A stretch of 64,000 nt of DNA from Escherichia coli (GCF_003790525.1 NZ_CP033635.1); one strand, 5' to 3'. Counted from the stretch's first letter, positions 9,363 through 9,990 are shown. Program-made: numbers and translations. The notes: a model not told the origin generated them from the letters alone.

Positions 9363-9953
9363 ATGAGTAGTAAAGAACAGAAAACGCCTGAGGGGCAAGC
9401 CCCGGAAGAAATTATCATGGATCAGCACGAAGAGATTGAGGCAGTTGAGCCAGAAGCTTCTGCTGAGCAGGTGGATCCGCGCGATGAAAAAATTGCGAAT
9501 CTCGAAGCTCAGCTGGCTGAAGCCCAGACCCGTGAACGTGACGGCATTTTGCGCGTAAAAGCCGAAATGGAAAACCTGCGTCGTCGTACTGAACTGGATA
9601 TTGAAAAAGCTCACAAATTCGCGCTGGAGAAATTCATCAACGAATTGCTGCCGGTAATCGATAGTCTGGATCGCGCGCTGGAAGTGGCTGATAAAGCTAA
9701 CCCGGATATGTCCGCGATGGTTGAAGGCATTGAGTTGACGCTGAAGTCGATGCTGGATGTGGTGCGTAAATTTGGCGTTGAAGTTATCTCTGAAACCAAC
9801 GTGCCGCTGGACCCGAATGTGCATCAGGCCATCGCAATGGTGGAATCTGACGACGTAGCGCCGGGTAACGTACTGGGCATTATGCAGAAGGGTTATACGC
9901 TGAACGGTCGTACGATTCGTGCGGCGATGGTTACTGTAGCGAAGGCGAAGTAA
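9363..9953 (+). CDS. grpE: nucleotide exchange factor GrpE
   Basis: 196-aa [34 protein letters not shown]...; ends ...VAKAK, one residue shorter than the K-12 protein as I recall it. Confidence 0.95.
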
Positions 9954-9960
9954 ATATCTG

Positions 9961-9990
9961 ATGGCCGACGCGAAGTCGGCCATTTTTTTA
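9961..9990. terminator. intrinsic terminator shared by grpE and the convergent acidic ORF
   Basis: ATGGCCGACGCGAAGTCGGCCAT hairpin followed by TTTTTTT on the plus strand; the stop codon of the minus-strand ORF lies in the T-run. Confidence 0.75.

Follow-up and report, generated by a model that had tools for sequence, protein, structure and literature searches.

Two non-homologous and apparently old forms of the grpE–yfjD intergenic space in Escherichia coli, one of which carries a DUF6630 family gene

The space between the convergent genes grpE and yfjD in Escherichia coli probably exists in two old, non-homologous forms that have been swapped by homologous recombination in the flanking genes. 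The minority form is carried by the stretch of E. coli DNA analysed here (GCF_003790525.1, NZ_CP033635.1; 64,000 nucleotides, termed the window, with positions counted from its first letter) and comprises a grpE end reading AKAK-TAA, a hairpin (T1), an oppositely oriented DUF6630 gene and the region upstream of it, and a further hairpin (T2). The majority form, that of K-12, comprises a grpE end reading AKAK[A/D]-TAA and a 54-bp spacer with one two-way hairpin. Each form takes in the last codon or codons of grpE together with the stop and ends just past the stop of yfjD. The switch from one form to the other would be an ordinary homologous exchange, the crossovers falling within the conserved genes on either side, with no site-specific or transpositional insertion step. 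The data show the anatomy of the locus, its distribution, the mosaic structure of the flanks, the absence of mobile-element marks and purifying selection on DUF6630. A small accessory gene is present in some strains and absent from others at a variable intergenic position, an ordinary kind of polymorphism, and the gene is already annotated in RefSeq; what is mildly unusual is the age of the forms, their spread across genera and the constrained, predicted well-folded protein. The features of the locus are as follows.

9363–9953, plus strand: grpE coding sequence, from the ORF list; 196 aa, ending ...MVTVAKAK and then TAA
9945–9953, plus strand: left edge of the allele-specific block; GCG AAG TAA, against GCA AAA GCT/GAT TAA in K-12-type genomes
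9951–10716, unstranded: whole alternative spacer cassette; about 766 bp, 42% G+C, in place of the 54-bp K-12 spacer
9960–9984, unstranded: hairpin T1, predicted intrinsic terminator of grpE, from a terminator scan; T-run at 9983–9989; between the convergent grpE and DUF6630 genes
9988–10593, minus strand: DUF6630 family gene; 201 aa, acidic; the mechanically called ORF reaches an upstream ATG at 10629 (213 aa)
10594–10692, minus strand: upstream region of the DUF6630 gene, with a presumed promoter and ribosome-binding site
10693–10710, minus strand: hairpin T2, predicted intrinsic terminator of yfjD, from a terminator scan; U-run encoded at 10684–10692
10717–12003, minus strand: yfjD coding sequence, an HlyC/CorC-family transporter with Pfam CNNM, CBS and CorC_HlyC matches; 1287 nt in the SC516 annotation; stop at 10717–10719

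Comparison of the window with K-12 in a four-way alignment indicates that alignment breaks off in the last codons of grpE and that nothing further is alignable until CGTTACTCC, 2 nt beyond the yfjD stop, where homology restarts. In K-12 the gap between the two genes is 54 bp long and holds a single two-way hairpin; in the window the order is T1, the minus-strand DUF6630 gene, its upstream region and T2, with a G+C content of 0.42 in the cassette against 0.51 in the flanks. When the 54-bp K-12 spacer was compared with the 768-bp window segment, the best local score was 17, against 17.2 ± 2.2 for shuffles, and no remnants of the K-12 spacer in the cassette, or of the cassette in the K-12 spacer, rose above the shuffled controls. 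The short form is not a subset of the long form, as it would be in a simple insertion/deletion pair of alleles, and given that no trace of homology to the cassette is left in the K-12 spacer, the whole spacer has been replaced, neither by insertion into the K-12 spacer nor by deletion from a longer form. Neither form derives from the other by a simple event. The edges of the block lie at both stop codons, as would be left by selection acting on a pair of conserved convergent genes: whatever lies between the last codons under constraint in grpE and yfjD can be replaced freely, and the coincidence of the edges with the ends of the coding sequences is therefore no evidence of a site-specific breakpoint.

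Within E. coli, the survey covered 5426 complete genomes, of which 303 carry the DUF6630 cassette and 5120 the K-12 spacer, such that 94% of genomes are cassette-free. The identical 72-nt junction formed by AKAK-TAA and T1 is found in 299 of the 303 cassette genomes, and the DUF6630 gene is annotated in all 299. By allele identity the cassette genomes fall into classes of ≥99% (25 genomes), 95–99% (266), 90–95% (a single genome) and about 84% (11), and dS between the classes inside E. coli reaches 0.75. Elsewhere in the genus, Escherichia sp. E1V33 and E. albertii have the K-12-type, or empty, spacer, and E. whittamii and two further divergent lineages have the cassette. Given that each form occurs in other Escherichia species and that dS is as high as 0.75 among the E. 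coli cassettes, both spacer forms can be taken to be old. The most divergent E. coli class, that of strain AF3 (NZ_OZ547117.1; 1535–2140 of the locus compared), comprises 11 genomes and has about 84% nucleotide identity, 81% amino acid identity and a dS of 0.75 to the window; in T1 and in the final 24 codons it does not differ from the common allele, so that the cassette itself is mosaic. Strain N96 was considered as a possible third state and was rejected, its locus being of the ordinary K-12 type. Two species labels among the sequences compared look doubtful: the flanking core genes of "E. coli" SCPM-O-B-8794 are about 92% identical to the window, and this strain may belong to a cryptic Escherichia clade, and those of "E. 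fergusonii" GCA_017528185.1 are 95–97% identical, which is too close to E. coli.

The flanking genes are themselves mosaic, and two stretches differ from K-12 to a raised degree.

9600–9950, plus strand: part of grpE with elevated divergence from K-12 (about 7%), from the SNP profile, segment identities and variable-site table
10717–11250, minus strand: stretch of yfjD with all-synonymous divergence from K-12 (about 5.5%), identical to strain AF3

The window YfjD protein is 100% identical to that of K-12. The 3' half of the window grpE (9600–9950) is 99.3% identical to the DUF-less Escherichia sp. E1V33 and 93.9% identical to K-12, and looks like a short, lineage-specific recombination tract imported from a cryptic-clade-like donor. 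The genes neighbouring this stretch are 94–96% identical to E1V33 and about 98–99% identical to K-12. Strain UC4315, which carries the cassette, differs from K-12, which has the empty form, at six sites in grpE (9363–9944) and at two in the whole of yfjD. An alternative reading of the SNP peak, as an old haplotype tightly linked to the cassette, was rejected: given the K-12-like background of UC4315 and the match of the window grpE 3' half to E1V33, the peak would be a recombination tract of this lineage. Furthermore, since UC4315 is K-12-like up to the junction and the grpE 3' half of the window is like E1V33, the linkage between cassette type and flank polymorphism appears, from the dozen haplotypes on which the recombination is read, to have decayed to tens of bases from the ends of the coding sequences. 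Repeated transfer of either form into new backgrounds, through homologous recombination in the conserved genes, would be expected to produce such decay.

Across the Enterobacteriaceae, 80 species representatives were recovered with GrpE; DUF6630 lies in the slot in three of these and is absent from 77. Most of the 80 species have AKAK[A/G/S/D] followed by a 35–60-bp spacer, often with a REP-like hairpin. Where it occurs outside Escherichia, the gene has the same slot and orientation as in the window and is variably present: Salmonella enterica has it (61% amino acid identity) and subsp. arizonae does not, Superficieibacter electus has it (67%) and a congener does not, and one Klebsiella spallanzanii has it (46%) and another does not. 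A fourth, very diverged type, 33% identical, is found on the enterobacterial metagenome contig SRR31316023 (83–679), in the same slot and convergent to a grpE whose product has 92.6% identity across the 94 C-terminal residues that the contig covers and ends AKAKA. Klebsiella, Raoultella and a few others have AKAK-stop followed by two hairpins, which align with T1 and T2, and no gene. In Pseudocitrobacter the grpE–yfjD slot holds a 589-aa GAF-EAL gene of the cyclic-di-GMP phosphodiesterase type (3226–4995 of one locus); the slot therefore takes different cargo in different genera. The spacer between grpE and DUF6630 in S. enterica is 204 bp long against 34 bp in the window, and a REP-like palindrome (GTAGGCCGGGTAAGGCGAAGCCGCCACCCGGC) can be recognised by eye downstream of its T1; REP-like hairpins, likewise judged by eye, occupy the slot in most DUF-less genera.

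The identity of DUF6630 between Salmonella and S. electus (76%) exceeds that between E. coli and Salmonella (61%), whereas YfjD is 92% and 95% identical in the same pairs. Given this conflict between the similarity of DUF6630 and that of the flanks, the data suggest some exchange between genera. Terminal codons specific to the cassette also recur: YfjD ends ...IVE-stop in the Salmonella and S. electus cassettes against ...VAE-stop and ...VKE-stop in DUF-less relatives, and the terminal codon of GrpE differs between K. spallanzanii with and without the gene. The hairpin of the K-12/E1V33 type (TTACGGCCCG...CGGGCCGTTTTTAT-tactccgcc), which lies beside the yfjD stop, has a close likeness at the same position in Citrobacter amalonaticus ku-bf3, and this likeness hints that the empty form may also be older than the genus.

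The GrpE protein of the window matches the Pfam GrpE profile (PF01025; 1.5e-48, 165 bits against a cut-off of 25.8) over residues 36–194, which places it among the nucleotide exchange factors, and strain SC516 annotates grpE here, with 100% identity over the 1638 bp compared (window 9363–11000). The initial annotation of the sequence had given the K-12 protein as one residue longer, and this is correct: the window protein has 196 residues and ends AKAK, whereas that of K-12 MG1655 (NC_000913.3, b2614) has 197 and ends ...AKAKA. The two are identical at 194 of 196 positions, the differences being V44I and A143S, and K-12 adds the terminal alanine (A197); it is thus not the case that K-12 GrpE also ends AKAK with identical downstream sequence. 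The same annotation had the divergence begin at the last codon of grpE. It is indeed in the last codons that homology is lost, but the difference starts about 7 nt 5' of the window stop codon and not exactly at the last codon, the nucleotide alignment giving GCG AAG GCG AAG TAA ATATCTG in the window against GCG AAA GCA AAA GCT TAA TTTCTG in K-12. Its coordinates were correct, the hairpin lying at 9960–9984 and its T-run at 9983–9989 overlapping the stop of the minus-strand ORF at 9988–9990, and the tie that it proposed between the GrpE end and the extra ORF is borne out, the two being completely linked in E. coli as part of one difference.

This linkage has to be set against the variability of the GrpE C-terminus. 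Across the 80 Enterobacteriaceae species the residue following AKAK is A, G, S, D or none, and a varying residue is also seen among DUF-less genomes; in genomes with the K-12-type spacer GrpE ends AKAKA (K-12, N96, E1V33) or AKAKD (UTI89, E. albertii). Klebsiella and Raoultella have the AKAK-stop end without the DUF6630 gene, and K. spallanzanii ends AKAKG with the gene and AKAK-stop in a DUF-less conspecific, such that the link between AKAK-stop and DUF6630 is not universal. It might be supposed from this that the missing alanine codon reflects a separate 3-bp indel in a C-terminus free of constraint, unrelated to the cassette. However, this is unlikely, given that in E. coli AKAK-TAA occurs only with the cassette, that the two preceding codons carry synonymous differences, GCG/GCA (window 9947) and AAG/AAA (9950), fixed between the spacer types in every Escherichia sequence compared (an eleven-haplotype comparison), and that the AAG-TAA end of grpE goes with the cassette in E. 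whittamii, Salmonella and Superficieibacter as well. The shorter GrpE is a passenger of the spacer cassette. Because the family shows no constraint on the residue that follows AKAK, the missing alanine is very probably neutral for GrpE function; the length of GrpE, 196 or 197 aa, serves as a marker of spacer type in E. coli, and no functional meaning is to be read into its terminal residue. The initial annotation had further proposed an insertion or recombination junction at the grpE stop, with the inserted segment supplying a replacement terminator. The segment does supply its own stop codon and hairpin terminator, T1, instead of the K-12 hairpin, and a discrete, fairly recent foreign insertion into a K-12-like spacer, with its breakpoint at the grpE stop, would fit the absence of the cassette from most E. 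coli genomes, its low G+C, its own terminators, the start of divergence at the end of grpE and the occurrence of distant homologues at other loci, one of them beside an IS-type transposase. Nevertheless, this tempting reading of a fresh insertion is not supported by the data; it is largely refuted and is hardly credible. The K-12 spacer is wholly absent rather than split, so that the change is a replacement and not a simple insertion. A repeat search of 9850–10850 with 6-nt seeds, bearing on the suggestion that direct repeats or target-site duplications might mark the two junctions, found no target-site duplication at the junctions and no terminal inverted repeats above chance at the ends of the cassette; the direct repeats near the edges are at chance level (a 10/11 match between 9945 and 10639, which is not at the right junction, and 74% between T1 and T2). 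There is no transposase domain in the cassette, whose sole ORF is DUF6630, and no integrase within 9954–10716, and the segment has the marks of neither a transposable element nor an integrase-mediated genomic island; ARAGORN, applied to 1–6000, gave a single gene, the tmRNA ssrA, about 5.5 kb from the cassette. A recent date is further contradicted by the finding of both forms in several species, by a cassette with the same edges in other Escherichia species, by its diverged versions in Salmonella, Superficieibacter and Klebsiella, and by the dS among the E. coli cassette alleles.

The opposite polarity is also to be considered, namely that the DUF6630 form is ancestral for Escherichia and Salmonella or deeper and that the K-12 form arose by gene loss and spacer remodelling and then spread in E. 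coli, with A197 as the novelty. This is a tentative possibility that falls short of being probable. It is in keeping with the synteny and orientation shared by Escherichia, Salmonella, Superficieibacter, K. spallanzanii and the metagenome contig, and identities down to 33% and saturated dS are as expected for long residence; the AKAK-stop end with T1/T2-like hairpins and no gene in Klebsiella and Raoultella resembles a deletion scar, and truncated DUF6630 products, which are present in databases, suggest ongoing decay. However, with the gene absent from 77 of 80 species, most of which have AKAKX and a short REP-like hairpin, many independent losses would be needed, and the K-12-type hairpin in E. 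albertii, together with the similar one in C. amalonaticus, would make the empty form old too. In addition, the K-12 spacer contains no remnant of the cassette, and the incongruence between DUF6630 and flank distances points to exchange between genera. A simpler version of this history, drawn from the synteny with Salmonella and Klebsiella, in which the gene is ancestral and was deleted in K-12, was not kept in view of the 80-species survey, in which the gene is rare and the empty form also appears old. Under the preferred reading of two old forms, the observations on how the gene first came to the slot pull in two directions. An original horizontal gain of DUF6630 is favoured by its presence in three of 80 species, its low G+C (42% against 51%) and the position of its distant homologues at unrelated loci, and an ancestral gene with many losses is favoured by the four very diverged types that share the slot and by the T1/T2-like hairpins of DUF-less Klebsiella and Raoultella.

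The minus-strand ORF of the cassette matches Pfam PF20335 over residues 54–199, its 42.3 bits exceeding the gathering score of 27, and thus belongs to the DUF6630 family; homologues also carry precomputed PF20335 matches, and the RefSeq label in SC516 is 'DUF6630 family protein' (WP_001287889.1). Given a dN/dS of 0.04–0.17 against orthologues in all pairwise comparisons and a confident AlphaFold2 model (pLDDT 92), the ORF is a real gene under purifying selection. In scoring above the gathering threshold and in its RefSeq annotation it is like other Pfam DUF6630 proteins. It differs from them in that the enterobacterial subfamily is very small, 1.84 billion representatives yielding 34 clusters at 50% identity, and in that searches turned up neither a function nor a paper nor a neighbour of solved structure: the product had no match among NCBIfam profiles or in PADLOC (anti-phage defence) and only noise in PHROGs (E 0.22–0.48), no relatives by sequence or fold were found in the PDB, and no papers were found on DUF6630, the grpE–yfjD intergenic region or STM2680. 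The more distant homologues lie at unrelated loci. The upstream region is kept among the Escherichia DUF6630-type haplotypes, and a sigma-70 promoter scan of it found no consensus site. Given that at least four types exist, 33–67% identical to one another, and that the gene is present or absent within several species, it could be imagined that the gene has stayed convergent to grpE throughout the divergence of the Enterobacteriaceae, and that it encodes an acidic, rapidly diverging protein whose polymorphism selection has long maintained, with a role tied to the DnaK/GrpE chaperone system or to conflict (phage, toxin), the grpE 3' end and terminator being included in the exchanged unit; this is quite improbable. 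DUF6630 is a conserved, constrained and predicted well-folded protein, and nothing here indicates a new mechanism.

Both hairpins have the form of intrinsic terminators, a stable G+C-rich hairpin with a U-run directly past a stop codon, and transcription is predicted to terminate at each of them. T1 folds with −18.1 kcal/mol (z −4.5) on the plus strand and −16.1 kcal/mol on the minus strand, with 10 pairs followed by 7 T; it fills exactly the 34-bp gap between the grpE stop and the DUF6630 stop, as a G+C-rich hairpin between an A-run and a T-run. T2 has 7 pairs (−13.6 kcal/mol) followed by 9 T. An Rfam search gave only sub-threshold, terminator-like noise. In folding on both strands T1 resembles the two-way intrinsic terminators found between convergent genes, and the K-12 hairpin has the same two-way role, for grpE and yfjD. 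T1 differs from such terminators in that its U-tract is poor on the DUF6630 strand (CAGAUAUUU), and efficient termination in that direction is uncertain. T1 aligns with the T1 hairpins of Salmonella, Superficieibacter and DUF-less Klebsiella and Raoultella, and the core of T2, AAAAA(C)GGCGAACC..C.CC, aligns with the T2 of Salmonella, Superficieibacter and DUF-less Raoultella and Klebsiella, although at the 20–30 nt of the hairpins compared homology is weak evidence.

Accessory-gene islets that occupy fixed slots between core genes and are exchanged by homologous recombination in the flanks are a well-known pattern of the E. coli pangenome. The grpE–yfjD cassette conforms to this pattern, as one small gene with its own expression signals between core genes in a minority of strains, with lower G+C, no mobility genes and mosaic flanks, and in a slot that elsewhere holds other cargo (GAF-EAL in Pseudocitrobacter, REP-like hairpins). 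It differs in that each form replaces the other entirely, terminal codons of the flanking genes included, and in that the forms are shared across species and genera, which makes the polymorphism unusually old for an islet of this size. Mating-type-like idiomorphs offer a structural analogy only: there too, two unrelated sequences occupy one position between conserved flanks and persist across species, but nothing at grpE–yfjD points to balancing selection or to a functional alternative, and the short form is gene-free. With insertion sequences, MITEs and integrase-borne islands the cassette shares its presence in some genomes and absence from others, but it is without target-site duplication, terminal inverted repeats, transposase or integrase, and the empty site is no clean excision product. 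The locus provides a small, clean example of an accessory gene between conserved convergent genes that persists for a very long time as an alternative spacer, and of a cassette that, in moving by flank recombination, drags along the unconstrained terminal codons and the terminators of its neighbours.

Elsewhere in the window, a 1254-aa autotransporter adhesin of the AIDA/pertactin type is encoded on the plus strand at 191–3955, directly beyond ssrA (tmRNA, 4116–4478, minus strand). This is the position of the CP4-57 prophage in K-12, and colinearity with K-12 begins only at window position 4115.
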